From an uncultured Planctomycetia bacterium (GTDB lineage: Bacteria > Omnitrophota > Gorgyraeia > 2-02-FULL-51-18): a stretch of DNA of 33,821 bases. Numbering within the stretch: position 1 is the stretch's first letter; the number at the start of each line of letters is the position of its first letter. Positions 936-29,824 of the stretch are shown piece after piece. Position numbers and translations under genes: made by a program. The stretch covers positions 1 to 33,821 of the forward strand of contig CAZAPB010000001.1 of NCBI GenBank assembly GCA_964486835.1. The letters run 5' to 3'. The notes under the pieces were generated by a model, which saw nothing but the letters and a program-made list of their open reading frames with translations, did no database searches and was not told the DNA's origin.

Positions 936-2507
936 GTGTTGATAAATAACTTCATAAGTAGTAATACAGTGGGATTGTATATTGAAGGCAAGCGCATATA
1001 TGTTGCTGAGCTAAGCTGCCAATTTGGAGAGAGTAAGATTTCACATGCGGGACAGTCAGAAGTGGTGCTGACCCAGGTTAATCCGACGCCGGACGATGAG
1101 GCTGTATCCCGCGCTATCCTTGAAATGCTCAACCGCGAATCTATTAGGCACAAAGATGTTATTGTGGCACTCACCGAAAAAGAATCCATGATCCGGTATT
1201 TTGAAATGCCGATTCTGCGGTTGGCGGAACGGCGGAATTCTGTTCGTTTTGAAGCGCAAAAATATCTGCCCTTTGATATTCGTGAGCTTTATTTTGACTA
1301 TTCGTTGCAAATAGATAAAGCCCAGAACAGGATGAAAGTTACGTTCTTTGCCGCTAAAAAAGAAGCCGTGAACAGGTTGAGCTCGATTGTTAGGGGGGCG
1401 GGTCTCAGAGTCAGGGCGATTGAGTCTGCGTCCATGGCTTTAACGCGAGCGTTTTATCCGGTGGAAACTAAAGCCCTCAATGAGGCGTTTGCCGTACTGG
1501 ATATCGACAAAAACGGTTTTATCAATATTTTTATCGTCAAGAACGGCCTTATTGTGATGACGCGCGATCACATATACTTCAAGCCCGCGGCTATCGGAGA
1601 TGTGACGGAAAACGATTTTAAAGCATGTGTGTCTGAAGTCAGGCTTTCGTTGAATTATTTCTCCAAGACCTTTAAGAATGAAAACCTAGCCAGGATTGTT
1701 CTCGGGGCTGACCTCAAGGGGGCATACAAACAATGGGATTCCATGCTTGAAGTTGAACTGGGTATTCCCGTGAGAGTTGGTAACCCTATGGGATATTTTC
1801 CTGCCAATCAGAGTTACTCCGGCGGACTGACCACGGCTATTGGTTTGGCGATGAGAGGAATTCCGCGCGCGAGGGGAATGCGCCTTAACCTTAATCCAAA
1901 GGGTGATGTGCGCCCCGCCAATATTGCGACTGCACGCACGGTTGTCGATGAGAATGATTTTTTAAAAAAAGCAGTTATTTGTGAGGTGATATTTGTGGCG
2001 ATTTTTGGCATGATTGTTTATTACGGTGTTTACAGCAAATTGCTTGCTGTCAGAGGCAATTTCACACGGCAGTCGCAATCGACGCAAGGCCTATCCGCCT
2101 TGTCGGCTGAGGAGGTCAATGCCAAAGCCACGAATCTTAGCGGCCAGATTAATTTTTTGTCCAATCTTGTTCAGCACCGGGTCTATTTCACCCAGAAAAT
2201 GAATTCGCTGGCTAAGACGCTTCCACCCGAGGTTTCGTTGTCAGCCCTTTTTTATGATGAGCGTGAGGGATCAAGTGGTAAAGGAAGGTGCACGCTATCG
2301 CTGGAGGGTATCATTGTTTCTCATGCGGGGGGAGTCGAGCTGACGGAGCTGAATCAACTCGTTGCCACTCTTTCTCAGGATAAGGAATTTATGAAAGGTT
2401 TTGATGACGTGAGGATCGTGTCCGCACAAAACCAACCTGAGAATGACAGGCTATTGACCCGGTTTGTAATCAATTGCACAACGCAGGCCCCGGAGAAGAC
2501 TCAATGA
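936..2507 (+). CDS. pilM: type IV pilus assembly protein PilM fused to a PilN-like TM/periplasmic domain (GspL-like architecture)
   Basis: The N-terminal ~330 aa are an actin-like PilM fold (VGLYIEGKRIYVAEL ... AIESASMAL ... GLAMRG). One TM helix follows (VICEVIFVAIFGMIVYYGVY), then a ~170-aa PilN-like periplasmic part. GTG start. The stop overlaps the next start (ATGA). Confidence 0.8.
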   Translation: MLINNFISSNTVGLYIEGKRIYVAELSCQFGESKISHAGQSEVVLTQVNPTPDDEAVSRAILEMLNRESIRHKDVIVALTEKESMIRYFEMPILRLAERRNSVRFEAQKYLPFDIRELYFDYSLQIDKAQNRMKVTFFAAKKEAVNRLSSIVRGAGLRVRAIESASMALTRAFYPVETKALNEAFAVLDIDKNGFINIFIVKNGLIVMTRDHIYFKPAAIGDVTENDFKACVSEVRLSLNYFSKTFKNENLARIVLGADLKGAYKQWDSMLEVELGIPVRVGNPMGYFPANQSYSGGLTTAIGLAMRGIPRARGMRLNLNPKGDVRPANIATARTVVDENDFLKKAVICEVIFVAIFGMIVYYGVYSKLLAVRGNFTRQSQSTQGLSALSAEEVNAKATNLSGQINFLSNLVQHRVYFTQKMNSLAKTLPPEVSLSALFYDEREGSSGKGRCTLSLEGIIVSHAGGVELTELNQLVATLSQDKEFMKGFDDVRIVSAQNQPENDRLLTRFVINCTTQAPEKTQ

Positions 2508-3022
2508 TAGGTTCTCTTTCAAAGAAAACAACCGATAACCTTATTTTTTTCTCATTTGTTATATTTTTCGGGGGGGCGTTCATTTGCTGGAATTCTTTTG
2601 TAAAACCGATGAATGTTCAGATCAAGTCACATCAAGCTAATATGGTCAAAATAGCGCAAACGAAGACAGCGGTTGAAAATCTAGATGCCTTGCAGAGAAG
2701 ATTCGTGGACTACAAGAATGTTCTCTCGGAGACGCAGCTGATATCCTGGCTTATCGATGAGTCCAATCGTCTAGCGACAGATTGCGGCCTGACTATTATA
2801 TCCGCGTCTCCAGGGCCTGATATACCGAATTTGGATTTTCGGCGGATAACTCTGAGGATTGAAGCACGAGGCACTTATCATCAATTAGGTGATTTTATCA
2901 GTAGCATTGAGAACTCGGAACGACTTATCAAGATAAGTGACTTTTCCGCAGAGCGCGGTGAAAATGCAACAAAAGGACTTCGTATGATAATAACTCTGTG
3001 TATTTTTACTGTGAGGACATAG
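2504..3022 (+). CDS. pilO: PilO/GspM-like pilus assembly protein
   Basis: N-terminal TM helix (LIFFSFVIFFGGAFICW), a coiled segment, then a PilO-type C-terminus (ITLRIEARGTYHQLGDFISSIENSERLIKISDF). ATG at 2504 gives an ATGA overlap with the upstream stop. The ORF track's 2474 TTG start is less likely. Confidence 0.7.
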   Translation: MIGSLSKKTTDNLIFFSFVIFFGGAFICWNSFVKPMNVQIKSHQANMVKIAQTKTAVENLDALQRRFVDYKNVLSETQLISWLIDESNRLATDCGLTIISASPGPDIPNLDFRRITLRIEARGTYHQLGDFISSIENSERLIKISDFSAERGENATKGLRMIITLCIFTVRT

Positions 3023-3023
3023 G

Positions 3024-3398
3024 ATGCTTTATTGGAATATAATCAATATAAAACGGCCTATTTATTTAACCTTTTTAGCTATTCTGCTGGCAGAGTTGTT
3101 GACAGGTGAATCTGTGATGGCTGTGGAATACGCCGGCCGGCTATTCCGGGATCCGTTCTCGAAAAACACAGAGAAGAGCGCGCCGAAGACAGAGGATACG
3201 CCTTCGAGCAAACTGGTTTTGAAGGGAGTGTTTTGGAGCGCTGGAAACCCTCAAGCGCTGATTAACGGCCAGGTAGTCAAAATAGGTGATAAAGTGAGGG
3301 GCGCTGAAGTGATTGACATTAAAAAAGAAGGCGTCAAAATGCGTACGGGTGACAACGAGGAGATATTTTTGCTTTTTAAGAGGGGGGCAAGTTCATGA
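3024..3398 (+). CDS. small periplasmic PilP/GspB-like secretin-coupling protein (tentative)
   Basis: TM/signal anchor followed by a C-terminal motif LVLKGVFWSAGNPQALINGQVVKIGDKVRGAEVIDIKKEGVKM, typical of small PilP/GspB-type proteins. GAGGA RBS about 7 nt upstream. ATGA overlap with the secretin gene. Confidence 0.55.
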   Translation: MLYWNIINIKRPIYLTFLAILLAELLTGESVMAVEYAGRLFRDPFSKNTEKSAPKTEDTPSSKLVLKGVFWSAGNPQALINGQVVKIGDKVRGAEVIDIKKEGVKMRTGDNEEIFLLFKRGASS

Positions 3399-5137
3399 AG
3401 AAAAGAAGATTTGCCGCTACAGTTATTTTATTAGCGGCTTTTTTTTTGATTTCAGCCACGGGGTATATTCCAAGCGCCTATTCTTCTGATGAGCTTACTG
3501 GCGGAGCTGATTCTGCCATTGTTTCAATGGAATTCGAAGGCGCGGCCCTAAAGGATGTCTTAAAGGTGCTTTCCCAACAGTCGGGTTTGAATTTTGTCAC
3601 AAGCTCCGATGTCGAGCAAAAGCAGGTTACCGTCTATTTTGATCATGTACCTGCCGGTGAGGCCCTGGAAAGTATTGTTACCGCCAATGGTTTGGTTTTT
3701 GAAAAAAAAGGCGCTAATGTCTACATGATCTCTGCGCCCACCGCCTCCCAAGATGCTGTCACTCTTCAGACGCGGGTTATCCGGCTTAAGTATTTGCGCG
3801 CTTCAACGTCACCTTTGGATGTGGGTGGTGATGCGACAATCAAACAGCTCAGGAGCTCAGAATCGATAATGAGTTTTGGTACTACGGTTGGCGAGGCAGC
3901 GGCTGGAGGGACGGATAGCGGGAACAAGAAAGGGGACGAGAATAAAAAGGGGGCTACGGTCGTTCTTGAGAAAGGAATTGATCAGCTAGTGGCGAGTCTT
4001 CTGTCTGATAATGGAAAAGTAGCCGTGGATTTGGCTAGTAACTGTTTGATCGTCACGGATACTATCGATAAGCTCAATCAGGTCGAGAAGGTGATCGCTC
4101 AAATCGATGTAGCCCCAAGACAGGTTATGCTCCAGGTGCATCTGATGGAAGTCCAAAAGAATGTATTGGATGACCAGGGCATCGAATGGGGCGGTAACAA
4201 TGGAGCGTTGGCGTCGTTTCAAGGCGGGTCTCGGACCGCCGCTTGGCCGTTTGATGAGCATATTTGGAAAAGATTCAAGGGGGTCGAAGCTAGCCAAGTT
4301 ACCGACCCATCGACTTTAACGCTTGGGACGCTCAGTGCTGAAAATTTGCAGGCAGTTCTGCACTATTTGACAACACTTAATGATACAAAAATATTAGCGC
4401 GACCGCGTGTTCTGACGCTGAACAATGAAGCCGCCAATATTCGTCTGGTGACCAATACCGCTACTGCCAAGCTAGATGTGATGTCAAGCGGAGGCGCTAT
4501 CACTACGCTTCAGACCGGCGGCGCCGAGAGAACCCCTGTTGGTGTGATCCTTAAGATAACTCCGCAGATTAACGATGACGGGACTGTAGGTCTTTTTCTC
4601 GAGCCTTCTTTTACGACAGTTGCCCCGTCTTCTTTTTTCCCGGCTGACTTTTTAGATCCGACGACTCGATCCATTCGTACCATGGCAAGAGTTAAAAATA
4701 ATGAAACGTTGGTTCTTGGTGGTCTGGTAAGTAGCAACAACCTCAAAACGACAAAAAAAGTACCTGTTTTGAGTGGGCTGCCTTTAGTAGGAAAAGCGTT
4801 CCAGTATGAGCACACGAGCACGACGGACACGGAGCTCATCATATTCATTACGCCGCACATTGTGAATGGTTACGATAGCATGGCAGTCCCTAGCGCTACG
4901 GCTTTGACGCGGGATGTCGAAGCAAAGAAACTCGTTGATCAGTTCAAAGAGAATGAATACAAAAGAATCATGTCCTCATTGGGAAATGCTGAAGTTGAAA
5001 ACCAGCCGTTTTATGAGGAGGATAAGCAGATGATGATAAAAAATGCTAGAACCATCGTAACTCCCGCTACAGAAAAAGCGATGAGCCAGGCGATTAACCC
5101 TGACCTAAAGAAGTTTGAGGCAAAACCGGTTAAGTAG
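3395..5137 (+). CDS. pilQ: secretin (PilQ/GspD family outer-membrane channel)
   Basis: Signal peptide, N-domain repeats (LKDVLKVLSQQSGLNFV; CLIVTDTIDKLNQVEKVI) and the conserved secretin core (ILARPRVLTLNNEAANI ... VPVLSGLPLVGKAFQ ... ELIIFITPHIV). Confidence 0.9.
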   Translation: MKKRRFAATVILLAAFFLISATGYIPSAYSSDELTGGADSAIVSMEFEGAALKDVLKVLSQQSGLNFVTSSDVEQKQVTVYFDHVPAGEALESIVTANGLVFEKKGANVYMISAPTASQDAVTLQTRVIRLKYLRASTSPLDVGGDATIKQLRSSESIMSFGTTVGEAAAGGTDSGNKKGDENKKGATVVLEKGIDQLVASLLSDNGKVAVDLASNCLIVTDTIDKLNQVEKVIAQIDVAPRQVMLQVHLMEVQKNVLDDQGIEWGGNNGALASFQGGSRTAAWPFDEHIWKRFKGVEASQVTDPSTLTLGTLSAENLQAVLHYLTTLNDTKILARPRVLTLNNEAANIRLVTNTATAKLDVMSSGGAITTLQTGGAERTPVGVILKITPQINDDGTVGLFLEPSFTTVAPSSFFPADFLDPTTRSIRTMARVKNNETLVLGGLVSSNNLKTTKKVPVLSGLPLVGKAFQYEHTSTTDTELIIFITPHIVNGYDSMAVPSATALTRDVEAKKLVDQFKENEYKRIMSSLGNAEVENQPFYEEDKQMMIKNARTIVTPATEKAMSQAINPDLKKFEAKPVK

Positions 5138-5185
5138 CCCTATGCAAAAGATGAGTCTGACTAAAAAGCAAGAAGGAGCTTTTTG

Positions 5186-6913
5186 ATGGGCAATCCACCG
5201 CTAAGACTGGGCGAGATTCTTCTAAAAGATGGCCTCATCACGCAGGAGCAGCTTAGCGCTGCTCTGGCGCTTCAAAGAAAAGGGGCTAATGAAGCGCTTG
5301 GCGTGCTTCTTGTCAAAGCCGGAGCGATTTCCGAAAAAATCCTTGTTGTGACGTTGAGCAAGCAGCTGAATATTCCCTACGCGTCAAAAGAGAAGGGAAA
5401 TCTACTTCCAGCTCCCGACCAGAGCCTGGTTAAGATTATTCCCGAAGAATTCGCCCGCCGCAATACCGTGTTACCACTTTTGATCGAAGGCGGCGACCGT
5501 CTCAAAGTTGCTATTATGGACCCCTTGGATGTTGTACTTTTAGATAATCTCCATAAGATCACCGGATGCGAGATTCAGAGGGTTATTGCTTCCAGAGGTG
5601 ATATTGATGAAGCGATAAGCAAATTTTATGGGGAAGGCGGGATGCTTAAAAGTGTGATTCAATCCTCCTATTTGTCGGCGGGTTTGGTAGCCGACGATGA
5701 GACGGATGATCGGTTGTCTTTGGACGATTTGGTAGCCAGCGCTGAGAAAGCACCTGTCGTCAAGCTGACCGACCTGCTAATCCGTGAGGCGATCAAGAAG
5801 CGCGCCAGTGATATTCACTTGGAGCCTTTTGAAGATAAGCTCAGTATACGTTTCCGCATTGATGGCGTCTTGAGAGAGATACCGGCACCGGACAAATCGA
5901 TGATCCTGCCTTTAACTTCGCGTATCAAGATTCTTTGCAAGATGGATATCGCCGAGAAACGCCTTCCTCAGGACAGCAGTTTCCGTGCCACGATCGAGAA
6001 CCGTTTGATTGATTTTCGCGTTTCAACGATTCCAACCATTCACGGCGAAAAGGTTGTTCTGCGTATATTGGACAGATCCGCAGTTGCTCTTGACTTAAAG
6101 ACCATGGGTTTTACCGAAAGAGAAAAAGATATTTTCACTCAATGTATTCGCAAACCTTATGGCATGATTCTTATCACGGGCCCGACCGGCAGTGGAAAGA
6201 CAACAACCCTTTATTCGGCTCTCAATGAGATTAAGGGGGAAGCTTTGAATATTACGACAATTGAGGATCCTGTCGAATACCAGCTACACGGCATCAATCA
6301 GGTTCAAGTGAAGCCCGGTATCGGACTGACATTCGCTAGCGGGTTGCGCGCCTTTCTTCGACAGGATCCCGATGTTATGCTGGTAGGTGAGATCCGAGAT
6401 CTGGAAACAGCGCAAATTTGTGTTCGCGCGGCGCTTACCGGGCACTTGGTCTTCAGTACTCTGCATACTAATGATGCGCCCACAGCTCTGAGCCGGCTGG
6501 TAGATATTGGCATTGAGCCTTTTTTTGTCAGCTCGTCTCTTTTGATGGTTGTTGCCCAGCGCTTGATCCGCAAGCTTTGCCCCAAGTGTAAAGAATCATA
6601 TAAACCTCTCGCGGCGGATCTACCAAGTCAGCTCAAGCTCAAAGGCGCGGCTCCCATAGAACGGTTGTATCGTCCCAAGGGCTGTGAAGCATGCAATAAT
6701 ACCGGGTATGCAGGGCGCAGGGCAATCTTTGAAATGATGAACAACACGGAAGAGATTGCGCGCATGATTCTCAAAAGAGCGGGTGTGGCCGAAATAAGGG
6801 AGGAAGCCAGGCGCAACGGCATGTCCACCCTGGAAGAAAACTGTCTTAAAAAAGTAGCTGACGGAGAGACTTCCCTGCAAGAGATGATGAGAGTGGTATT
6901 ATCCAGTGACTAA
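5186..6913 (+). CDS. pilB: pilus/secretion assembly ATPase, PilB/GspE family
   Basis: N-terminal T2SSE_N-type domain (LGEILLKDGLITQEQL). Walker A GPTGSGKTT, Asp box, Walker B VMLVGEIRD, His box and the tetracysteine motif CPKC...CEAC. AAGGAG RBS 7 nt before the ATG at 5186. Confidence 0.92.
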   Translation: MGNPPLRLGEILLKDGLITQEQLSAALALQRKGANEALGVLLVKAGAISEKILVVTLSKQLNIPYASKEKGNLLPAPDQSLVKIIPEEFARRNTVLPLLIEGGDRLKVAIMDPLDVVLLDNLHKITGCEIQRVIASRGDIDEAISKFYGEGGMLKSVIQSSYLSAGLVADDETDDRLSLDDLVASAEKAPVVKLTDLLIREAIKKRASDIHLEPFEDKLSIRFRIDGVLREIPAPDKSMILPLTSRIKILCKMDIAEKRLPQDSSFRATIENRLIDFRVSTIPTIHGEKVVLRILDRSAVALDLKTMGFTEREKDIFTQCIRKPYGMILITGPTGSGKTTTLYSALNEIKGEALNITTIEDPVEYQLHGINQVQVKPGIGLTFASGLRAFLRQDPDVMLVGEIRDLETAQICVRAALTGHLVFSTLHTNDAPTALSRLVDIGIEPFFVSSSLLMVVAQRLIRKLCPKCKESYKPLAADLPSQLKLKGAAPIERLYRPKGCEACNNTGYAGRRAIFEMMNNTEEIARMILKRAGVAEIREEARRNGMSTLEENCLKKVADGETSLQEMMRVVLSSD

Positions 6914-6931: not shown

Positions 6932-8158
6932 ATGGCCACTTTTTTATTCAGCGCTCGCGATGGCGCGACGGGTAGACTTGTGCAAGGCAAGCAGGATGCC
7001 GATAATGAATATGCGGCGATCAGAATTCTCCAGGGGCGCAATCTGGTTATTTCTAAGCTTGCTCTTGTCAGCGGTCAACCCGTGGAGATAATAGGGGGTC
7101 AAAATAAGATAAAAATTCATCGGCAGGTTAAGCCGGGAGATCTGTTGTTTTTAATACGCCAGACTGCGATTCTTTTGGATGCAGGTGTGCCATTGATCAG
7201 AGCGCTTGATATTCTTTCGGCGCAGATAGAAAGTTCTTACTTAAAGGAGGTGCTCAAGGTTGTTGTAGATGACATTAAAGCGGGCTGTACTTTCAGTGAC
7301 GCCATCGCTAAGCATCCGACGACATTTCCCCAAATATGGGTTCATCTTATAGAAGCAGGTGAGGCAGGTGGTCTCTTGCCTTTAGTGCTTAATCAGCTGG
7401 CGGCATACGTCGAAGCAAGCATCAATTTAAAAAGCAAAATTATTTCCTCACTGATTTATCCGGGGATGATTATGTTGACGGCGTTTGGCGCGATCATCGT
7501 TTTTATGACGGTGCTAATTCCCGTGTTTGCCAAACTTTTCGCTAGTTTTAACGCAAAACTGCCTCCTCTAACGCAGGCTCTTATTGACATCAGCTCGTTT
7601 TTCCTTAAATTTGGGCCGTATACTGTATTCCTGCTCGTAGTCGTAGGATATTTTCTCCGCAATTATTTACGTACTCAGGAAGGAAGCAGGTTGAAGGATG
7701 ACGTTCTTATAAGGCTCCCACTTTTTTCTGTTTTGGTTAAGGATATCATTCTTGTACGCATCGCTTTGAATATGTCGGCTCTGATCCAAAGCGGAGTGAA
7801 CCTTTTGCAAGCCCTTGAGATATCAGCCAAGATATCGGGCAATTACCTTTATGAGAACGCACTGAGGAACGTAATGCATGATATTCAACAGGGAAAAAGC
7901 TTGTCAGCCTCCATAGAGCAGAGCGGTCTTTTTCCCGTGATGGTTACGCACATGATCATGGTGGGAGAGGAAAGCGGGCAGTTGGCCCCCATGATCAAAA
8001 AGGTTGCTGAATACTACCAGGGCCGCATTGACATTTTTGTATCTAGGCTTTCGGTCATGATTGAACCCCTTATTGTGTTGGTTGTGGGAGGCATCGTCGG
8101 GGTGCTTATCATTGCTATGTTTCTTCCAATCATATCATTGAGCAGTGTAATTAAATAA
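6932..8158 (+). CDS. pilC: inner-membrane platform protein, PilC/GspF family
   Basis: 408 aa with the two-repeat GspF-type architecture (LIRQTAILLDAGVPLIRAL ... and IALNMSALIQSGVNLLQAL ...) and three TM segments. Confidence 0.9.
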   Translation: MATFLFSARDGATGRLVQGKQDADNEYAAIRILQGRNLVISKLALVSGQPVEIIGGQNKIKIHRQVKPGDLLFLIRQTAILLDAGVPLIRALDILSAQIESSYLKEVLKVVVDDIKAGCTFSDAIAKHPTTFPQIWVHLIEAGEAGGLLPLVLNQLAAYVEASINLKSKIISSLIYPGMIMLTAFGAIIVFMTVLIPVFAKLFASFNAKLPPLTQALIDISSFFLKFGPYTVFLLVVVGYFLRNYLRTQEGSRLKDDVLIRLPLFSVLVKDIILVRIALNMSALIQSGVNLLQALEISAKISGNYLYENALRNVMHDIQQGKSLSASIEQSGLFPVMVTHMIMVGEESGQLAPMIKKVAEYYQGRIDIFVSRLSVMIEPLIVLVVGGIVGVLIIAMFLPIISLSSVIK

Positions 8159-8288: not shown

Positions 8289-8684
8289 ATGAACGGTATA
8301 AATAGATTGAGAAATCTTAAAGGTTTTACATTAATGGAAGTACTTATTGTGCTGGTGGTTTTAGCAATTATTGTTAGTTTGGCTATACCTATCTATTCGC
8401 AGTCAGGTAAAAAAACGTATAAAGCTGAGGCTTTTAATATACTCAATGGTTTACGTAATGCGCAGGTTAGGTACTATTCTATGCAGACAGGCTCGAGGTC
8501 GTATTCTACAAGTTATACGGATATTGAATTTGACCCAACTGTAGTAGCTGGTACGCCGCATTTTACTTATTCCGTTGCTGCGGGTGTTGGTACGTTTCTT
8601 GCTACGGCAACCGGTTCCACTGGAGTAATCACTGGAAGCACAGTAACAATTGATCAGGCGGGTGCGATTGGTGGGAATCTATAA
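8289..8684 (+). CDS. type IV (pseudo)pilin, copy 1, likely major subunit
   Basis: Class III signal: leader MNGINRLRNLKG, then FTLMEVLIVLVVLAIIVSLAIP with Glu at +5. AAGGAG RBS 6 nt upstream. The mature part is identical to copy 2. Confidence 0.9.
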   Translation: MNGINRLRNLKGFTLMEVLIVLVVLAIIVSLAIPIYSQSGKKTYKAEAFNILNGLRNAQVRYYSMQTGSRSYSTSYTDIEFDPTVVAGTPHFTYSVAAGVGTFLATATGSTGVITGSTVTIDQAGAIGGNL

Positions 8685-8763: not shown

Positions 8764-9147
8764 ATGATAAATAAGCATCGTCAAGGTTTTACATTAATGG
8801 AAGTACTTATTGTGCTGGTGGTTTTAGCAATTATTGTTAGTTTGGCTATACCTATCTATTCGCAGTCAGGTAAAAAAACGTATAAAGCTGAGGCTTTTAA
8901 TATACTCAATGGTTTACGTAATGCGCAGGTTAGGTACTATTCTATGCAGACAGGCTCGAGGTCGTATTCTACAAGTTATACGGATATTGAATTTGACCCA
9001 ACTGTAGTAGCTGGTACGCCGCATTTTACTTATTCCGTTGCTGCGGGTGTTGGTACGTTTCTTGCTACGGCAACCGGTTCCACTGGAGTAATCACTGGAA
9101 GCACAGTAACAATTGATCAGGCGGGTGCGATTGGTGGGAATCTATAA
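8764..9147 (+). CDS. type IV (pseudo)pilin, copy 2, with mature sequence identical to copy 1
   Basis: Leader MINKHRQG, then the same FTLMEV... sequence to the stop codon. It has its own GAGGTGA RBS. Confidence 0.9.
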   Translation: MINKHRQGFTLMEVLIVLVVLAIIVSLAIPIYSQSGKKTYKAEAFNILNGLRNAQVRYYSMQTGSRSYSTSYTDIEFDPTVVAGTPHFTYSVAAGVGTFLATATGSTGVITGSTVTIDQAGAIGGNL

Positions 9148-9323: not shown

Positions 9324-9770
9324 ATGAAAGTTAGCATGAAAAACCATCGAACAGAATTTGGTTTTACGCTTATGGAGATCATGATTGCGATAGCAGTTAT
9401 GAGTACGATGGTTGGACTAGCGATTCCTTTGTATTCTTCAACAATCGAGGCATCGCGTTCAAATGAAGCCAAGGCCAATCTTTACACAATCTACATGGCT
9501 GAAAAAGTTTATCGGTTGAATAACGACTACTGTTATCCATACAGCGCCACACCGGTGACAAATATTGCCTTAATCAACAACAACCTTAATATCGAAATAA
9601 GCTCTCAATATTATACAATTGAACTTTTTTCGAATACACTCTCAGGTAGTCTAGCGGGATTTACCGCGACAGCAAAAAGAAATAATGCTGGAGCTAAAAT
9701 TTTTACATTGACATACGCAGGGAGTGCTGATACCGCTACTCCATCAATAGTTGAGACGGGAAGTTATTAG
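9324..9770 (+). CDS. type IV pilin-like protein (third pilin, distinct sequence)
   Basis: Prepilin motif EFG|FTLMEIMIAIAVMSTMVGLAIPLY. The ATG at 9336 is an alternative start. Confidence 0.85.
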   Translation: MKVSMKNHRTEFGFTLMEIMIAIAVMSTMVGLAIPLYSSTIEASRSNEAKANLYTIYMAEKVYRLNNDYCYPYSATPVTNIALINNNLNIEISSQYYTIELFSNTLSGSLAGFTATAKRNNAGAKIFTLTYAGSADTATPSIVETGSY

Positions 9771-9773
9771 AAA

Positions 9774-10892
9774 ATGAAATTTTGTCTTATGCGCCGCCGT
9801 GGTTTGTTAATTATATTGTTCTTTTTTGTTTTAGGCCATACGGATTACGGTTGGGCTGTACCGCAGGCAGAGAAAATTAATTTGTCCACAGAATATGTGT
9901 CGCCATTCGGGGATTATCAGGAGATGATGGTCCGCGATACGATGACTGTCGGAGAGTCGACGACCGCTACGGCGATAGCGACCATTCATGGCAATGTGTC
10001 GGTGGTTAAAGGCGTTTTTCAGGTGGATGACACCTTCAACGTGGATAGTAAGACATTGGCGAATTACGCTAACACTGTTGGCCAGAATTATTGGTTTGGT
10101 ATTAATATTGCCGTTTTGCAGAATGGACTGCCTCGGGCGGAGTTTGAGGTCAACGGCGATATATTCGCGGGGATGTTCCGCGCTTCGCCATCGCTGGCCG
10201 ATTCATCGGTTGATCAGGATACATTATTGTATTTTGGACCAACTGACGATGCCAACGCTGATGGCGTTGCCAGCGGCACATTTGATGATTTTGCTGTGCG
10301 CATGGGGGCGTACTCAGGCCAGAATAGTGCTGATGTTACTAACTATCCGGGAGGTTGGAATGATCCCCGGAGCGTATGCCGCATTAATGGTAGCCCGCAC
10401 ATAGTGATCAATTGCATAGGAAGTGATCCGGCTTTTAGCAACGATGTTGAATTTTCCTCAGGGAATGTAGGCATTGCTACCACGAACCCCCAATATAAAC
10501 TTCAAATCGGCAATCCCTCCGGCGCGGGCAGTGGATTGTATGCTGTGGGCCACCGCTGGGCAGGTTGGAGCTCGCGGGAATACAAGAAGGATATCACGCC
10601 ATTCACCACTAAAGATATTAACGGTATTTTTTTAAAGATCAGCGATCTTAATGTTGTGAGGTATCGCTACAAAGGAGCCAAAGAATTGGATCGTCTTCGT
10701 ATGGGTGTGTTGGCGGAGGAAGCTCCACAAGAGATAGTCACCGCCGATGGCAAAGGGGTGGACAGCATGAGCGTCATTGGATTTTTAGTCGCCGGTATCC
10801 GGGCCTTGAATGAGCAAAACATAGCTCTCGAAAAGCAGATCGCGGAGCTGGAGATTCGCGTTAACGGCGGTTCTGCTTTGGGGAAAATATGA
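9774..10892 (+). CDS. secreted tail-fibre-like protein A with a C-terminal peptidase S74 intramolecular-chaperone auto-processing domain
   Basis: Signal peptide (cleavage about GWA|VPQ). NVGIATTNPQYKLQIG motif. S74-type C-terminus from S266 (nt 10569): SSREYKKDITPF...VVRYRYK...MGVLAEEAPQEIV...VIGFLVAGIRALNEQNIALEKQIAELE. Confidence 0.85.
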   Translation: MKFCLMRRRGLLIILFFFVLGHTDYGWAVPQAEKINLSTEYVSPFGDYQEMMVRDTMTVGESTTATAIATIHGNVSVVKGVFQVDDTFNVDSKTLANYANTVGQNYWFGINIAVLQNGLPRAEFEVNGDIFAGMFRASPSLADSSVDQDTLLYFGPTDDANADGVASGTFDDFAVRMGAYSGQNSADVTNYPGGWNDPRSVCRINGSPHIVINCIGSDPAFSNDVEFSSGNVGIATTNPQYKLQIGNPSGAGSGLYAVGHRWAGWSSREYKKDITPFTTKDINGIFLKISDLNVVRYRYKGAKELDRLRMGVLAEEAPQEIVTADGKGVDSMSVIGFLVAGIRALNEQNIALEKQIAELEIRVNGGSALGKI

Positions 10893-12109
10893 AAAGAATT
10901 TTCTCGGCCGCTATGCCAGTGGCTGGTTTACTAATTTTCAATCTTGTTTTTTGCGCGGCCCTCTCAGCGGCCCAGGTTGAGCTTTATGCGTGTTTTGCGG
11001 CGCCGTATGGCTATTATAAAGCTTTGAAGTCACTAACGACCTTTCGTATTGGTGTAGCAGGCGCTCCCGCGACCAACGTCGTTTTTAATGGGGGCAATAC
11101 GACCGCAGACCCCGCGACTGTTCTATACGTAAGAAATAATGGTCTTCACCCGTGGCAGAGCGGCACGCCTAGCGGCGGAAATCTGATGATAAACGGTGAT
11201 TTCAATGTTTTGGACGCAAGCGCGCAATCTCTGTTTTATATTGATAGTGTCAATAATCGTGTGGGGATCGGAACTAGCAGTCCTGGAGCCACCTTGGAGG
11301 TGCGGCCTAATAACGGTTTTGGTGCCGGGATAACGGCTCTTGACCAAAGCGATATAAAATCGTTGGTTATTGCGGGACACGAGAACACTGTGGATTATAC
11401 CAAGCCTTGGGTGGAGATGAGGGCCCAGTTCAACGCCCCTGATTCTACGATTCAAACAGTAGCAAATCCGCTTAACTTGGCGTCTTTTGGAGGGGTGGGC
11501 AATAATAGCTTGAGCAAACCGTACACCTATTATTGGACAACCACTCATCTTGACGGAGCACCGGTACTGTTTCAGTCGATCAACAAATCTGCCTCAGGGG
11601 TAACCGCCGGCGGCGGATACGGGCAGGTTGTGATACGCGGTTATTACAATAGCGCTACAACAGGCCCAAACCCACGGGTTGCTTCCAACGCAGTTTTGGT
11701 GGTTGGTGAGCCTAATCCTGTTGTGTACGCGCCCCCTTATGTGACTGCCCCCAGCTACACACCGCAGTGCCGTGGTTGGTCCTTTGCCGCTTTTTCATCA
11801 CGTGATTATAAGCAGGACATCAAGCCTTTAACTCTTGCTGATTATCAGGGTTATTTGTGTTTGCTGGCTGGCGCAAACTTGGTTGGTTATCATTATAAAG
11901 GAGAATCCGTTGACAGTAAGCTTCATACCGGATTTGTCACTGAAGAGGCTCCAAGGGAAATCGTGACTGAGGATGGAATCGCGATCAGTTTGCAGGATGA
12001 GGGCGGTTTGCTGTTGGCATCGCTCAAAGCGGTAAAAATGGAAAATGACGGCATCGCCAAACGAATCGAAAAGCTAAAACAATGCGCTTCTCAAAACGCG
12101 TCACGATAA
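10889..12109 (+). CDS. secreted tail-fibre-like protein B with a C-terminal peptidase S74 intramolecular-chaperone domain
   Basis: ATGA overlap with A. Signal peptide (SAA|QVE). RVGIGTSSPGATLEV motif. S74 module from S303 (nt 11795): SSRDYKQDIKPL...LVGYHYKG...TGFVTEEAPREIVT...LLLASLKAVKMEND. Confidence 0.85.
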   Translation: MKRIFSAAMPVAGLLIFNLVFCAALSAAQVELYACFAAPYGYYKALKSLTTFRIGVAGAPATNVVFNGGNTTADPATVLYVRNNGLHPWQSGTPSGGNLMINGDFNVLDASAQSLFYIDSVNNRVGIGTSSPGATLEVRPNNGFGAGITALDQSDIKSLVIAGHENTVDYTKPWVEMRAQFNAPDSTIQTVANPLNLASFGGVGNNSLSKPYTYYWTTTHLDGAPVLFQSINKSASGVTAGGGYGQVVIRGYYNSATTGPNPRVASNAVLVVGEPNPVVYAPPYVTAPSYTPQCRGWSFAAFSSRDYKQDIKPLTLADYQGYLCLLAGANLVGYHYKGESVDSKLHTGFVTEEAPREIVTEDGIAISLQDEGGLLLASLKAVKMENDGIAKRIEKLKQCASQNASR

Positions 12110-13305
12110 ATATACTGCTTGTGATGGCGCTCATTGCGCTCTACTCCGGCAAAGATTCTTTCGCGAATATTGTCTTAAAAGCTTATTATCCGGTTCCATA
12201 CGGTGAATATCAGAATGCGATTGTTCGAGGTAAATTGGTGGTAGGCACTCAGTATCCGCGGCCGCAAACACCAGCTGCAGCTGATCCATATGCAATCGAC
12301 GACAGCTCCGCCATTCCCAGCAAAACCGATATTTTCGGTAATTTGACCAGCAATGGGAATGTGACCGTCACCAATGGACTGGTCAGGATCAATCCCGGGT
12401 TTGGGCCATACGGTAAGGACGGACTTCGTGTTTCCAATGGCATCAGCGGGGCAACGAGTAAAGTCATGGTAGGTAGTGACGATACCGAAGACAGGAAGGA
12501 CACTAACTCTGCCACCAATACTCAACCGTTTACCCGCAGGGGAACAGCCCGATTTAAAGCGAATGCCGTTTTGGCGGGCCAAAATCTATATGCGGTGGAT
12601 TATACGTCAAGCGGTTGCTTATATCAAGGTGCCATTCGTCGCCTTTACGGACGCATACGCGGCTACACTGATACCACAAGGACCCCTGGGGTATTGCAGA
12701 AGAAAGGTATGTTTTACGGCAAGTGGTTCAGGGCCGACAAATTGCCCAATGATTTTACGGTGCCACCCGGTGATATTACGGCCGCACAACATTGGGCGGC
12801 GTTAAGGATAGATGGTTATTACGTGCGTCTGGGTCAGAAAATGGTAGATCGAGCGGTATCCACAGAGGGGCTCATGAACACAGTTCTTATTGGCACGAGG
12901 AAACCCGATCCTACGGTGACACGTGCTGAGTCCCTTTTTCTGCAAGTGGGTACCCCAAATACCAGAGCACAGCTGGCCAGGGGTGATTTTTGTGTATTTA
13001 GCTCACGGGAGTTCAAAAAAGACATCACACCTTTTTCACCCAAGCAATATGCCGATGCTTTGCAAAAAATTTCACACACCCCCGTGTACCGCTTTCGTTT
13101 AAAAGCCGATCCCGCTGAAACAATGCCTAGAGTGGGATTGATCGCCGAGGATTCTCCCGCAGAACTGTTGACTATTGAAAAAAATGCCGTGGATATTTCT
13201 GATGCCAATGGATTTTTATTGGCGGCGCTCAAAGGGCTCAAGATCAAGAATGATGATCTTAAAATAAGGCTTGAAAAAAAAAAGAAAAAATACAAGGCTC
13301 TGTAG
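12082..13305 (+). CDS. secreted tail-fibre-like protein C with a C-terminal peptidase S74 intramolecular-chaperone domain
   Basis: 28-nt overlap with B. Signal peptide (SFA|NIV). S74 module from S307 (nt 13000): SSREFKKDITPF...PVYRFRLK...VGLIAEDSPAELLT...GFLLAALKGLKIKNDDLKIRLE. Confidence 0.85.
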   Translation: MRFSKRVTINILLVMALIALYSGKDSFANIVLKAYYPVPYGEYQNAIVRGKLVVGTQYPRPQTPAAADPYAIDDSSAIPSKTDIFGNLTSNGNVTVTNGLVRINPGFGPYGKDGLRVSNGISGATSKVMVGSDDTEDRKDTNSATNTQPFTRRGTARFKANAVLAGQNLYAVDYTSSGCLYQGAIRRLYGRIRGYTDTTRTPGVLQKKGMFYGKWFRADKLPNDFTVPPGDITAAQHWAALRIDGYYVRLGQKMVDRAVSTEGLMNTVLIGTRKPDPTVTRAESLFLQVGTPNTRAQLARGDFCVFSSREFKKDITPFSPKQYADALQKISHTPVYRFRLKADPAETMPRVGLIAEDSPAELLTIEKNAVDISDANGFLLAALKGLKIKNDDLKIRLEKKKKKYKAL

Positions 13306-13702
13306 AGGGCTTTCCGTCAGCGACGAGCGAGGATTTTCGCTTATGGAGCTGATGGTGGCAACAATGCTACTTGTTACGATGGTAGTCTGTGTTTATGCAA
13401 CGGTGATGACGTCCCTGCGGTTGCTCAAGCCTCAGCCGACTGTAGCTATGGACCTTGCCAGGCAGAAGATGGAACAATTGTATGAGGCGATACGCGGAGA
13501 CTGGTGGGGTGACGTCAGCACTAATTTTCACCCATTGAGAGTTGGAGGAACCGTCGGTGATGCATTAAAAAGCAACTACACAGATGCGGTAACGCTCGAC
13601 GGTATAACTTATACGCGAAGCTATATCGTCGAGAAAATTAACAATAATATCGGCGTCGAACGATATCGTCGCGTTAAGGTGACTGTCTCATGGCCAGACT
13701 AG
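13271..13702 (+). CDS. pilin-like minor subunit (PilV/GspI-like); start uncertain
   Basis: Prepilin motif ERG|FSLMELMVATMLLVTMVV and a C-terminus RRVKVTVSWP. The only canonical start upstream of the cleavage motif is TTG at 13271, which lies inside an A10 tract and overlaps the end of fibre gene C. Confidence 0.7.
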   Translation: MKKKRKNTRLCRGLSVSDERGFSLMELMVATMLLVTMVVCVYATVMTSLRLLKPQPTVAMDLARQKMEQLYEAIRGDWWGDVSTNFHPLRVGGTVGDALKSNYTDAVTLDGITYTRSYIVEKINNNIGVERYRRVKVTVSWPD

Positions 13703-14307
13703 CGCTATTCAAGAACAAAAAAGGTTTTACTCTGACGGAAATCTTGATTGTGAGCGTGTTGCTTGGTGTAGTTTTTTTTTCCTGCACAACCGCGTATATT
13801 GCTGTCTTGAGAGTATTTGAGGATTTAAAGAAGAATGCTGACAACGCAGATATTTTTTATGGGTATCAATCAATAACGCGGAAAATCAGTGTGGCACACG
13901 AGGCTGAGATTTCGGTTGACCATCAGCAGATCAAACTAAGGGTTGATTATCCACAGAATTCAATCATCTGCAATGGAACACCGGGAGTCAAGGGTGATGA
14001 CACTTGGGTAAAATATAGGATAGACTCAAACGGTAGGACAGGGATAGACTCAAACAGAATTTATTGGAGCTGGGATGTAGCGCAGGCCGGAGATGTTGTT
14101 CCCAGCGATGCTGAGCATGGCAGTAATCAGGTCGCGGCTGGTCTTGTAATCAAGAGCGGCAGCGGCTCAGGCTTTTTTTTAACAAACGTAACAGGTGCTG
14201 GAAACCCCACAGTTGTCAATGTAAAGCTTGTGGCGCTAATAGGAACACCTATTAGAGAAGTAGCTTACGACACTAGTGTGGCGATTGGCTGTATGGCGAA
14301 AAACTAA
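13690..14307 (+). CDS. pilin-like minor subunit (PilW/GspJ-like)
   Basis: Prepilin motif KKG|FTLTEILIVSVLLGVVFF. 13-nt overlap with the upstream gene. Confidence 0.8.
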   Translation: MARLALFKNKKGFTLTEILIVSVLLGVVFFSCTTAYIAVLRVFEDLKKNADNADIFYGYQSITRKISVAHEAEISVDHQQIKLRVDYPQNSIICNGTPGVKGDDTWVKYRIDSNGRTGIDSNRIYWSWDVAQAGDVVPSDAEHGSNQVAAGLVIKSGSGSGFFLTNVTGAGNPTVVNVKLVALIGTPIREVAYDTSVAIGCMAKN

Positions 14308-14310
14308 AAA

Positions 14311-14802
14311 ATGAAATCCTGCAGATCTCTAAGAAGTCAAAATGGTGTGGCTTTGATAGTGGCCATGTTGGTTATTATTATGATGTCTTCTATGGCCGCT
14401 GTGGTGTATATGCCTGGCGCATCTGCGAAGTTTGGAATGGGCCCTATCAGCTCTCTTTCTTTTCACACGTTCAAGGTAGTTCGCATGCTGAGTTCTGGCC
14501 GAGAGCTAGCGCTCTATCGTGCGCGCGCAGGCATGGTCGATGCGCAAGAAAGAATGAGGACTAACTATCTTACTTTGGATTCCGGCGGACCTCTTACAAC
14601 TTGGGCAAACATAGGCAGCTTGGCCGCGCCGAAGTACAATTTTATAATCAATAATTATTCGGTGTGTCAACAGGTTAAAACTACGCTCCGCGATGATTAT
14701 GCCTATGTGGCGGCAGGCGTGCCGGACTCGGTGCCTACTAGCGGTACCTATGGATGCAGACTTATTACCGTAACAGGTCAAGAGTTTTTTCAGACGAATT
14801 AA
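14311..14802 (+). CDS. PilX/GspK-like minor pilin-associated protein
   Basis: PilX_N-like N-terminus QNGVALIVAMLVIIMMSSMAAVV without a G|F(T/S)L(x)E cleavage motif. Last gene of the co-directional block. Confidence 0.65.
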   Translation: MKSCRSLRSQNGVALIVAMLVIIMMSSMAAVVYMPGASAKFGMGPISSLSFHTFKVVRMLSSGRELALYRARAGMVDAQERMRTNYLTLDSGGPLTTWANIGSLAAPKYNFIINNYSVCQQVKTTLRDDYAYVAAGVPDSVPTSGTYGCRLITVTGQEFFQTN

Positions 14803-14914
14803 TATATTATTTTTGTGTATTTGGTATCACATAGAATGATATTATGTGCAGTGAGTTGTAGGGCATTGCTGTTATCTAGTTTTATAGTCCAGGCATAAGG
14901 AAGACTGAAAATCT

Positions 14915-15691
14915 ATGGTAAAAAAAACTTGGAATATTTTTTTCGTTGTTGTCGTGACGGTCATTTTCGCGCTGACATCCTACATGCTTTACTCAGATGC
15001 GCAAAAACAAAAAAGTTTGAGGATTAAGAAAGAAACGGAGCTCTCTGCTAAAATTGTTGAGCTCGCGGAGATTCAGGAGCAGATTAAGCGAGTGACTGCT
15101 CAGCGCAACGAGATTGAAAGTCGCCTTAATTATAAGGTCGCCAGCCTTGAGGCCTCGATGAAGGATTCTGACGTGACGATCAAGTCTCAAGCTGAAAAGC
15201 TCGATGCTTTGAGCGAAGAGAGTGTAACGCTTCGCAAAGACATTGAGGATGGGGAAAAGAAGATAGCGGAGTTTGCCCGCAGAGCTCAGACTTTGGAAAA
15301 AGAAAAGACCGCATTGACCGCTAAGCTCAAAGAATTTGAGGGTAATCAGCCAGAGGTTGCCGATGAAAAAGAGAACGATTTAAATTCCGGCGGAGGGATT
15401 GACTGGACCGCGGATATGGATACGGTTGATCTCGGAAAGATCGTGGTACAAAAAATGTCTGGTAAAGCCGCTCTGGTTCAGCATGTGGACTCTCTCTATG
15501 GTTTTATTGTGATCAATGCCGGGAAAGAAGATGGAATGACCCCGAATATGGTCGTCAATATTCTTCGCAATAAAAAGATGATCGGCAGGGCCGTGGTGCA
15601 AAAGACTGAGAAGAACGTCTCTGCTGCTGTGGTGTTGCCGCGTTGGACCCGAGGCGAAATCAAGGAAGGCGATGTTGTCAGCCGCTTTTAG
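14915..15691 (+). CDS. membrane-anchored coiled-coil protein with a C-terminal beta-rich domain (function unknown)
   Basis: N-terminal TM helix (IFFVVVVTVIFALTSYMLY), about 130 aa of heptad-like E/K/L-rich sequence, then GKIVVQKMSGKAALV...FIVINAGKEDGMTPNMVVNILRNKKMIGRAVVQK...IKEGDVV, an MreC/SH3-barrel-like pattern. This is tentative. Confidence 0.6.
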   Translation: MVKKTWNIFFVVVVTVIFALTSYMLYSDAQKQKSLRIKKETELSAKIVELAEIQEQIKRVTAQRNEIESRLNYKVASLEASMKDSDVTIKSQAEKLDALSEESVTLRKDIEDGEKKIAEFARRAQTLEKEKTALTAKLKEFEGNQPEVADEKENDLNSGGGIDWTADMDTVDLGKIVVQKMSGKAALVQHVDSLYGFIVINAGKEDGMTPNMVVNILRNKKMIGRAVVQKTEKNVSAAVVLPRWTRGEIKEGDVVSRF

Positions 15692-15858
15692 ATATTGTGG
15701 CCACTCACCGTTCGCTCAACAAGCTTGAGTTCAAGGCGCATATGAGTATCCACAATTTTATCAGTGTTTCTGAGCATGAGACTCACCAGTCGTGGGCGTT
15801 CACTCGAGACCGTTTTGGAAAAATACACCTTCTAATCGACGAGCAGGGGAGTGGGCGA

Positions 15859-16122
15859 ATGGTGAATCTTAGGAATAAAGCTGCCAGCGCTGTTTTGGTG
15901 CTTTTCTTTTTTATCTTTGTTTCATCCGCGGCTGCTGATACCTCTTCTGGCTCTATCCAAGGGAAAGGGCCTAATGCGCAAGTTTCCAGCAACGATCCCG
16001 AAGTCCGGTCAATTGATAGCTGGATGAATAAGAATGAAGAACGACCTGTGTTTTATAACGACGGATCGACCGCGATGGGTTTTAATGACAGCGGTGATCC
16101 GAATGTGAGTACACGGTTCTAA
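15859..16122 (+). CDS. small secreted hypothetical protein
   Basis: Canonical Sec signal MVNLRNKAASAVLVLFFFIFVSSAAA|D begins at the ATG at 15859. In-frame alternative starts are ATG 15742 and TTG 15643; the latter overlaps the upstream gene and is unlikely. Confidence 0.45.
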   Translation: MVNLRNKAASAVLVLFFFIFVSSAAADTSSGSIQGKGPNAQVSSNDPEVRSIDSWMNKNEERPVFYNDGSTAMGFNDSGDPNVSTRF

Positions 16123-16136
16123 AAGTCCCCCAACAC

Positions 16137-29620: not shown

Positions 29621-29824
29621 ATGAGAAAAGTGAAGGTGTCCGCCCTGCTTGGCTCGGCTCTGAAACCCCGGCTTCAAAACAACAAACTAAATGAACCCTC
29701 TAAAACTTATGATAAAATAAGCCAGCTACTTGAAAAAGTCAGTTTCGGCAAAAGGGAGTTTTGGCAGACTGTTAGGGGCGACCGGCAATTGCTTAATCCT
29801 AAATATAGGAAGGGATCATTATGA
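29621..29824 (+). CDS. small basic hypothetical protein
   Basis: 67 aa with no recognisable motif. ATGA overlap with the following PA14 gene suggests co-translation. Confidence 0.35.
   Translation: MRKVKVSALLGSALKPRLQNNKLNEPSKTYDKISQLLEKVSFGKREFWQTVRGDRQLLNPKYRKGSL

Follow-up and report, generated by a model that had tools for sequence, protein, structure and literature searches.

Three consecutive genes, designated A, B and C, were analyzed in a 33,821-nucleotide stretch of DNA (contig CAZAPB010000001.1 of an uncultured bacterium; the whole stretch is hereafter called the window), in which they lie between the pilin and the minor-pilin genes of a type IV filament operon. Each encodes a protein with a secretion-type N-terminus, and the three products share two modules, a motif directly after the predicted signal peptide and a C-terminal module homologous to the Peptidase S74 chaperone of viral fibers. 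In a small clade, the trio has long been a fixed component of the operon. We put at about even the chance that A, B and C are three Sec-exported fiber or spike proteins forming a fixed accessory module that is displayed or exported by the type IV filament machine. The best explanation for this machine, judged jointly with the fiber reading and held with the same confidence, is a type IV filament of a type intermediate between a type IVa pilus (T4aP) and a type II secretion system (T2SS).

Two shared modules and three different bodies

A Pfam search, which the initial annotation had proposed as a check on its assignment of an S74 chaperone domain to each protein, placed Peptidase_S74 (PF13884; gathering score, 22) at all three C-termini. 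The matches fell at the predicted positions S266, S303 and S307, with A and C scoring above the gathering score and B below it. PF13884 also matched 23 of the 23 members of the wider family, all B orthologues included, with E values of 0.01 or less (best E = 6e-11), and B scored 130 bits against a hidden Markov model (HMM) of the family's C-termini. The Ser-x4-Lys spacing noted at the outset was kept in A, B and C; across the 23 sequences, the lysine was invariant and the nucleophile was a serine in 21 and a cysteine in 2. In every family member, the module made up the last 95 to 109 residues, and in A, B and C it was preceded by an LQVG element. The K1F endosialidase and T5 pb1 are precedents for this domain (PMC10769870, PMC4690869), and the cellular protein Bd3182 self-cleaves at its catalytic serine, with a Ser-to-Ala substitution blocking cleavage (PMC10769870).

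An AF2 model of C, based on a 30-sequence alignment, had pLDDT values of 87 to 97 over residues ~305 to 407, which formed a helix-strand-strand-long-helix arrangement. Foldseek superimposed this module, at 2.0 to 2.6 Å over ~100 residues, on viral proteins that bear the name 'Peptidase S74' or that of an 'intramolecular chaperone'. Profiles of the family matched the ICA domain of MYRF (7DC3), and the A-family profile matched the L-shaped tail fiber of T5 (8HQZ, E=1.7e-5); a PDB search with A as a single sequence gave no match. Tail and tail-fiber families of PHROG matched the C-termini of A and C. No NCBIfam family and no PADLOC defense-system match were obtained for A, B or C.

Variation at the nucleophile was seen in locus L001 (L-numbered loci are contigs of relatives, all of them metagenomic or unannotated metagenome-assembled genomes [MAGs]; homologue searches found few relatives). 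In this locus, a cysteine occupied the position in A (649-1722, TCSRQFK) and C (2978-4204, FCSRELK), and B kept the serine. From the sequence, this looks like a natural, conservative exchange of the Ser nucleophile for Cys in an S74 domain.

The N-termini of A, B and C each had a charged n-region, a hydrophobic core of 10 to 14 residues and a small-x-small site, as judged by inspection and hydropathy. These secretion-type N-termini agreed with the Sec signal peptides that had been annotated, which are thus predicted by inspection. Lipoprotein anchoring was considered and rejected, as cysteines of the signal peptides were not conserved among orthologues. Directly after the predicted signal peptide, all three proteins carried an aromatic motif of ~30 residues, [IV]x[LR][ST]T.Y..P[FY]G.Y..L....[LF]..G, in which P44, Y48 and G60 (A numbering) were nearly invariant across the 23 sequences. 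An HMM of this motif matched the trio proteins and stand-alone open reading frames (ORFs) of L045 and L048, and nothing else.

The stand-alone proteins (L048, 19845-20822; L045, 16684-17274) are secreted and are encoded several kilobases from the pil operon. They carried the motif as ITITTYYPSPYGVYREMRA together with GNVGIGT repeats, and the C-terminal domain of the complete copy, in L048, was of a different, non-S74 kind without a Pfam match. Since the motif is common to A, B and C despite their unalignable bodies and is also present on the non-S74 L048 protein, it represents a separable module. Its occurrence on the stand-alone proteins, that of L048 being non-S74, also means that the motif defines a wider, undescribed fiber family.

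Between the two modules, the proteins differed. Profile-profile alignment found A, B and C to be confidently homologous at their two ends only, and full-length homology of the bodies was rejected as unproven on this ground. Family bodies were 196 to 295 residues long, in whole proteins of 323 to 450 amino acids. The divergent middle regions had been annotated as alternative receptor-binding parts, and this view, taken in a fast-evolving sense, was not upheld: the bodies had one-to-one orthologues with identities of 38 to 47%, near the 43 to 47% of the S74 module. Because orthologous bodies are conserved like the S74 module, they are not hypervariable, and A, B and C are three fixed, different designs.

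A fiber-like segment was detected in B, whose family body profile (positions 47 to 144) matched the crystallized trimeric β-helix fiber Bd2133 of Bdellovibrio (8OND, E=0.0039). The matched chain residues were 131 to 230; with the construct starting at residue 662, these correspond by arithmetic to about residues 792 to 891 of Bd2133, which fall within two regions called an intertwined trimeric β-helix by the authors (PMC10769870). The same structure gave a nonsignificant E value of 0.27 with the A-family profile and no match with that of C, and neither of these two profiles had a significant body match in the PDB. This match of B, together with that of the A-family profile to 8HQZ, bore out the fiber-like character proposed in the initial annotation, and the VGI[AG]T..P...L.V motif was found in A and B, where it had been noted. 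No enzymatic domain was detected in A, B or C with Pfam or NCBIfam.

Motifs of the form GNVGIGT..P..KL tied the family to a large fiber-repeat superfamily. An exhaustive HMMER search of 1.84 billion representatives gave 39,979 matches to this S74/GNVGIGT-repeat superfamily, giant repeat proteins included; full-length A-type proteins made up about 25 to 30 clusters among the best 150 of the 39,979 matches, and a word-index search with the full family alignment added at least one further full-length member. The distant bacterial S74 proteins P0012, P0013 and P0014 were encoded by stand-alone genes outside pil operons and are therefore uninformative about the trio system.

Conservation of the trio and its operon

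The coordinates, overlaps and placement that had been annotated for the trio, in a slot between pilin and minor-pilin genes, were all exact in the ORF list and the raw junction sequences. Three nucleotides (AAA) separated the TAG stop codon of pilin-X (9768-9770) from the start codon of A, an ATG at 9774. Genes A and B had an ATGA overlap (10889-10892), B and C overlapped by 28 nucleotides (12082-12109), and C and minor pilin 1 overlapped by 35 (13271-13305). The GC content of the trio was 0.49 to 0.50 and the window mean was 0.476. A promoter and terminator scan was uninformative, with terminators at background level, and it detected no terminator signal above background within the operon. 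The overlap of C with minor pilin 1, in which C finishes as …LEKKKKKYKAL and minor pilin 1 begins as MKKKRKN…, contained a run of ten A residues (13274-13283) followed by a G and six A residues. Such a run was absent from the orthologous overlaps in L001 and L010, and it is possibly a slipped-strand or frameshift-prone site.

The trio layout was detected in 8 distinct lineages (distinctness being judged by nucleotide comparison), with orthologues 31 to 49% identical. In L001, L002, L008/L009, L010, L011/L012 and L036, pilin-X was followed by three S74 proteins, then by three small minor pilins and finally by a coiled-coil protein of ~260 amino acids, and pilin-X orthologues lay directly 5' of the trio in L001, L002, L008, L010, L011 and L013. 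In L008/L009 and L010, the whole machinery was found in the same order, and L010 also had the housekeeping genes that lie downstream in the window. Each genome had its own orthologue of A, of B and of C, and the C-terminal S74 modules grouped by slot (mean identity, 42.8%) over genome (36.1%). These results indicated that the triplication predates the divergence of the lineages. The most divergent trio found, in L013 (615-3171), appeared to have the order B-like, A-like, C-like, and its B-like copy was degenerate, having lost the SSR signature and kept the S-x4-K spacing (STIASK).

Co-occurrence with the filament machinery was surveyed with a PilC/GspF bait in JGI metagenomes, and the resulting 80 loci were all scanned with the family HMMs. 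The trio was present in both of the loci (2/2) with a PilC at least 45% identical to that of the window. It was found in none of seven sister loci with a PilC 35 to 38% identical and at least 6.7 kb of downstream DNA, and it was absent from all of the more distant PilC loci of the survey. In the sister operons, pilin-X directly abutted the minor pilins and nothing replaced the trio in the slot. The initial annotation had named, as evidence that would count against it, a recent insertion absent from otherwise syntenic pil operons; the absence from syntenic sister operons was found (0/7), and the recent insertion was not, the trio being spread over 8 lineages at 31 to 49% identity. A scan of reference genomes gave no match with the A-family alignment, the source genome itself not being retrieved; with PilC, it gave two distant MAG operons, 28 to 29% identical, without S74 genes.

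A sister operon without the trio, in L039, had a gene for an oligosaccharyltransferase of the STT3/PglB type (14107-16611) after the minor pilins, and several ORFs beyond it resembled glycosyltransferases by sequence appearance. This hints at pilin glycosylation in the L039 lineage.

Pfam and NCBIfam scans of the operon around the trio detected a complete machinery of PilM/O, secretin, ATPase and platform, with three pilins 5' of the trio and three minor pilins 3' (Table 1). The identification of these flanking genes by Pfam corroborated the annotated integration of the trio in a pil/gsp operon, and the window scans, as annotated, found no phage structural or integrase gene. Assignment to the T4aP or the T2SS subtype was balanced, with the NCBIfam models for PilB, GspE, GspF, GspD and PilQ all just under their cut-offs: the ATPase scored 618.7 bits with PilB and 588.3 bits with GspE, and the secretin gave similar scores with the GspD and PilQ models. 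The c-di-GMP motif of the ATPase (NF053729) scored 48.3 bits, with a cut-off of 38. The motif is an MshE-related one that binds c-di-GMP, and filament extension is therefore probably under c-di-GMP control.

Table 1. Features of the fiber trio and of the filament operon, with positions in the window
Feature	Position	Strand	Match or remark
PilM-like assembly protein, 523 aa, probably a PilM-PilN fusion	936..2507	+	Pfam PilM_2 E=1.2e-16
PilO/GspM-like alignment protein	2474..3022	+	Pfam PilO E=6e-13, T2SSM_b E=5e-5
PilP/GspC-like small protein, 124 aa	3024..3398	+	T2SSC weak, E=0.0076, under cut-off
Outer-membrane secretin	3395..5137	+	Pfam Secretin E=3.6e-37, Secretin_N
Extension ATPase, PilB/GspE/MshE type, N-terminal MshEN	5183..6913	+	T2SSE E=1.5e-142, MshEN E=7e-19
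Inner-membrane platform PilC/GspF	6932..8158	+	Pfam T2SSF E=8e-57; GspF and PilC models under cut-offs
Major pilin copy 1	8289..8684	+	N_methyl E=8e-7
Major pilin copy 2, tandem duplicate	8764..9147	+	300 nt 99% identical to copy 1
Pilin-X, second pilin, SNEAKANL motif	9324..9770	+	N_methyl E=5e-5
Protein A, 372 aa: signal peptide, N-terminal motif, ~230-aa body, S74 module	9774..10892	+	
A N-terminal motif, residues 35-60, INLSTEYVSPFGDYQEMMVRDTMTVG	9876..9953	+	
A S74 module, S266...K271 to C-terminus	10569..10889	+	PF13884 32.0 bits, residues 266-318
Protein B, 406 aa: signal peptide, N-terminal motif, ~273-aa body with β-helix-like unit, S74 module	10889..12109	+	
B N-terminal motif, residues 30-55	10976..11053	+	
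B S74 module, S303...K308 to C-terminus	11795..12106	+	PF13884 18.8 bits, E=2e-3, residues 303-355
Protein C, 407 aa: signal peptide, N-terminal motif, ~277-aa body, S74 module	12082..13305	+	
C N-terminal motif, residues 30-55, IVLKAYYPVPYGEYQNAIVRGKLVVG	12169..12246	+	
C S74 module, S307...K312 to C-terminus	13000..13302	+	PF13884 28.3 bits, residues 307-358
Minor pilin 1, GspI-size, Glu5 present, RG|FSLMELMV	13271..13702	+	N_methyl weak
Minor pilin 2, GspJ-size, Glu5 present	13690..14307	+	N_methyl E=1.2e-5; conserved in L008, L010
Minor pilin 3, GspK/PilX-like, NG|VALIVAMLVI, hydrophobic N-terminus	14311..14802	+	By analogy; no family match
Operon-closing protein: transmembrane, coiled-coil and C-terminal β-rich parts	14915..15691	+	Coiled-coil-type matches only

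Several of the smaller components could be followed in the relatives. The PilM-like protein, which scored 104.7 bits with the TIGR01175 pilM model (under cut-off) and had a weak Amuc_1101-family match, kept its position in L008/L009/L010, and a protein sized like the PilP/GspC-like protein occupied the matching position in L008/L010. Minor pilin 1 was conserved in L001, L008 and L010. The third minor pilin lacked Glu5 in the window, L008 and L010; tip subunits such as GspK are without Glu5. The two major pilins of the window had identical mature sequences and differed in the leader peptide alone, and a near-identical pilin pair in L010 (6168-6587 and 6671-7090) matched this tandem arrangement. 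The paired copies in the window and L010 suggest concerted evolution or recurrent duplication.

The protein of ~260 amino acids that closes the operon was conserved in L008 (12633-13424), L010 (12752-13516) and L011 (4917-5699), at 254 to 263 amino acids and with the C-terminal elements …KIVVQK…GFIVINAG…. A small ORF without a family match (15643-16122) followed the operon in the window and in L010 (13523-13951); both of its ends were conserved, strikingly so at the N-terminus (ATHRSLNKLEFKAHMSIHNF; C-terminus, …GDPNVSTRF), and it contained a single hydrophobic segment. Housekeeping genes lay 3' of the operon (S11 carboxypeptidase, HI0933, Maf, GreA, Dus, BipA and an RluA-type protein), and an ABC transporter, a pyruvate kinase and a histidine kinase were encoded farther downstream. 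A protein of 293 amino acids with a PA14 (carbohydrate-binding) domain (29821-30702), unlinked to the operon, might be a further factor in adhesion. No Rfam or tRNA match was obtained in the window. In exact look-ups, the window proteins were singletons of an NCBI assembly, and weak matches, all under threshold, with the Akkermansia Amuc_1098/1101 models and with Verru_Chthon pilin models hint at a PVC-like lineage.

Relation to known fiber and pilus systems

PilY1 and PilC1-2, the tip adhesins of type IVa pili, are large non-pilins whose gene lies among minor-pilin genes and whose presumed place is on the priming complex that minor pilins form at the tip of the pilus; PilY1 is a monomeric β-propeller protein of about 1,000 amino acids. 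The trio occupies a slot equivalent to that of PilY1 without homology to it, and the likeness is positional only. None of the window ORFs, the longest of which encodes 606 amino acids, matched the PilY1/Neisseria_PilC family in Pfam or NCBIfam, which agreed with the annotated absence of PilY1.

A closer parallel in export may be offered by TcpF of the toxin-coregulated pilus (TCP) of Vibrio cholerae and CofJ of CFA/III of enterotoxigenic Escherichia coli (ETEC), which are Sec-exported non-pilins encoded in pilus operons (PMC9565799, PMC6048534, PMC10120004). In these systems, the aromatic N-terminus of the mature protein hooks a tip minor pilin, and pilus extension carries the protein through the secretin; TcpF sits as a trimer on the tip and is finally released (PMC9565799). 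The trio resembles TcpF and CofJ in the location of its genes in a pilus operon and in having Sec signal peptides, those of the trio being predicted by inspection. There was no sequence or domain similarity between them, TcpF and CofJ having neither an S74 domain nor fiber repeats, and each of those systems has a single such protein, in contrast to the three paralogues found here. The core genes of the window are T4a/T2SS-like, and a large minor pilin of the T4b type was absent from the window scans.

In architecture, the trio resembles the mosaic adhesive trimer (MAT) fibers of Bdellovibrio bacteriovorus (for example, Bd3182 and Bd2133), which are likewise cellular and not viral and in which a Sec signal peptide is followed by an N-terminal element conserved across the family, a fiber body and a C-terminal S74 domain with Ser...Lys (PMC10769870). 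MAT proteins occur in S74 and non-S74 versions (PMC10769870), a split also seen here between the trio and the stand-alone L048 protein. The MAT proteins are larger, with fragments reaching residues 922 to 1151 (the PDB entries being C-terminal fragments only) and a β-rich N-terminal domain of ~130 amino acids, compared with 323 to 450 amino acids and a motif of ~30 amino acids here, and they have the motif SDxxxK, whereas the trio has SSRxxK. They are not described as pil-operon genes in PMC10769870, in which their surface anchor is still open.

Phage S74 fibers, such as the K1F endosialidase and T5 pb1, and MYRF share with the trio the C-terminal module of ~105 amino acids with its Ser-x4-Lys spacing. 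The phage fibers differ in their N-terminal parts, which are unrelated, and the trio has Sec signal peptides and a chromosomal operon without virion genes nearby. Full-text literature searches found no paper describing S74 fiber genes in a pilus or secretin operon, in line with the lack of a known precedent stated in the initial annotation. Bacterial S74 fibers, secreted proteins that ride on pili and non-pilin tip adhesins are all known parts; not known are the way in which they are combined, the N-terminal motif that the three proteins share and the conservation of a three-paralogue set.

A candidate mechanism, competing explanations and implications

In the mechanism that we propose, each of A, B and C would be exported to the periplasm, where the C-terminal S74 chaperone would nucleate trimerization of a short body of the β-helix type, ~230 to 280 residues in length. 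The chaperone would then excise itself at Ser266, Ser303 or Ser307, using the lysine five residues downstream. The predicted products are mature trimers with ~235 to 280 residues in each chain, the last residues being W265, F302 and F306, and with the aromatic motif retained at the new N-terminus. This motif may serve as a docking or secretion signal for the minor-pilin tip complex encoded directly downstream, and the spikes would then pass through the secretin and reach the surface as the c-di-GMP-sensing PilB/MshE-type ATPase extends the filament. There, they could act as tip adhesins or target-recognition devices in the place of PilY1, with shedding as a possible final step. Because of the shared N-terminal motif and the fixed slot beside the minor-pilin genes, tip docking would be the most economical model.

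A number of observations weighed against this proposal. Trimerization, cleavage, export, binding to the minor pilins, transit of the secretin and adhesion all go beyond what homology and gene order show, and we infer them. The PF13884 score of B itself (18.8 bits) was lower than the gathering score, and the model of C had no significant Foldseek match in the PDB. The bodies were poorly modeled as AF2 monomers, with a pLDDT of 34 for A (7 sequences) and of less than 50 for the body of C (30 sequences). The sister operons without the trio indicated that it is a clade-specific accessory, outside the core machine. TcpB and CofB are large homotrimeric T4b minor pilins, in contrast to the three small GspI/J/K-like proteins found here, and the docking analogy may not transfer. 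Neither PilT nor a prepilin peptidase was present among the ORFs of the 33.8-kb window, though both could be encoded elsewhere; the filament may thus be a short pseudopilus, which would favor an exporter of soluble cargo.

Such an exporter, resembling a T2SS or a TcpF-style pilus, would release A, B and C as trimeric exoproteins (lectins, matrix or attack factors), an explanation that we consider unlikely and yet the most serious competitor of tip display. The almost equal scores of GspE/F/D and PilB/C/Q, the pseudopilin-like gene order (G, G', H-like, then I/J/K-like), the missing PilT of the window and the ultimate release of TcpF are all consistent with it, and S74 cleavage would yield a compact soluble trimer. 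T2SS substrates, however, are rarely encoded among pseudopilin genes and do not normally share a linear N-terminal motif, the Pfam and NCBIfam scans gave no enzymatic domain for the three proteins, and known S74 proteins are attached fibers or spikes. The two explanations overlap in part, as docking at the tip could be followed by shedding.

The parallel with MAT proteins (signal peptide, conserved N-terminal element, β-helix body and S74 domain) raised the question of pilus-independent fibers that take another path to the outer membrane, where the N-terminal motif would anchor them, and that are only co-regulated with the pilus since both serve attachment. The ORFs of L045 and L048, which encode the same motif away from the pil operon, indicated that the motif needs no operon linkage; as both genomes also carry a sister pil operon, these loci do not separate MAT-like anchoring from pilus display. 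The strict slot between pilin-X and minor pilins and the overlapping frames in 8 lineages are tighter than co-regulation needs and speak for a direct functional link, and we regard pilus-independent anchoring as quite unlikely.

A bolder version of pilus display, which we treat as a long shot, is that the related S74 chaperones assemble A, B and C into one heterotrimeric spike. The three N-termini would then match a pseudo-threefold, heterotrimeric tip of the GspI/J/K type, and the filament would be a target-recognition organelle resembling a phage tail.

A role as a periplasmic structural or assembly part, such as a trimeric spacer or a gate-opening factor in which S74 is merely a folding aid, would fit the fixed 1:1:1 gene stoichiometry, the conserved bodies and the position amid structural genes. 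This was judged very improbable: sister operons have neither the trio nor a replacement in the slot, the characterized S74 proteins are all exposed fibers or spikes or the released factor MYRF, and the fiber-repeat motifs are typical of extended extracellular fibers. Decaying prophage tail-fiber genes or a recent mobile insertion without a pilus role, which the viral distribution of S74 and GNVGIGT modules and the absence from sister operons might suggest, is effectively refuted by the lack of any phage gene in the window, by intact ORFs with conserved catalytic residues in 8 lineages at 31 to 49% identity, by a trio GC content close to the window mean and by IMG/VR, in which viral contigs matched the A profile in its C-terminal part alone (residues ~170 to 230 onwards, GNVGIGT and S74), never the N-terminal motif or body, and gave no match with the C family.

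Type IV pili and T2SS rank with the most thoroughly studied machines of bacteria, and recognition of non-pilin adhesins or cargo at their tips is understood in few cases (PilY1, TcpF/CofJ). If display of the trio by the filament is the true reading, then this clade has replaced or supplemented the tip-adhesin function with three virus-type, self-processing trimeric fibers that are hard-wired in the operon. Docking of the N-terminal motif, if true, would provide a new, sequence-defined signal for tip loading and a concrete hypothesis on how predatory fibers of the MAT type are anchored at the surface, and it would mean that a cellular filament has recruited the fiber-folding technology of phages. 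The heterotrimeric arrangement, if true, would amount to a pilus tip device of a new class, which might, for instance, attach these bacteria to prey or host cells, and could explain MAT-type anchoring. The trio also suggests attachment-dependent lifestyles in lineages that are known from metagenomes only.

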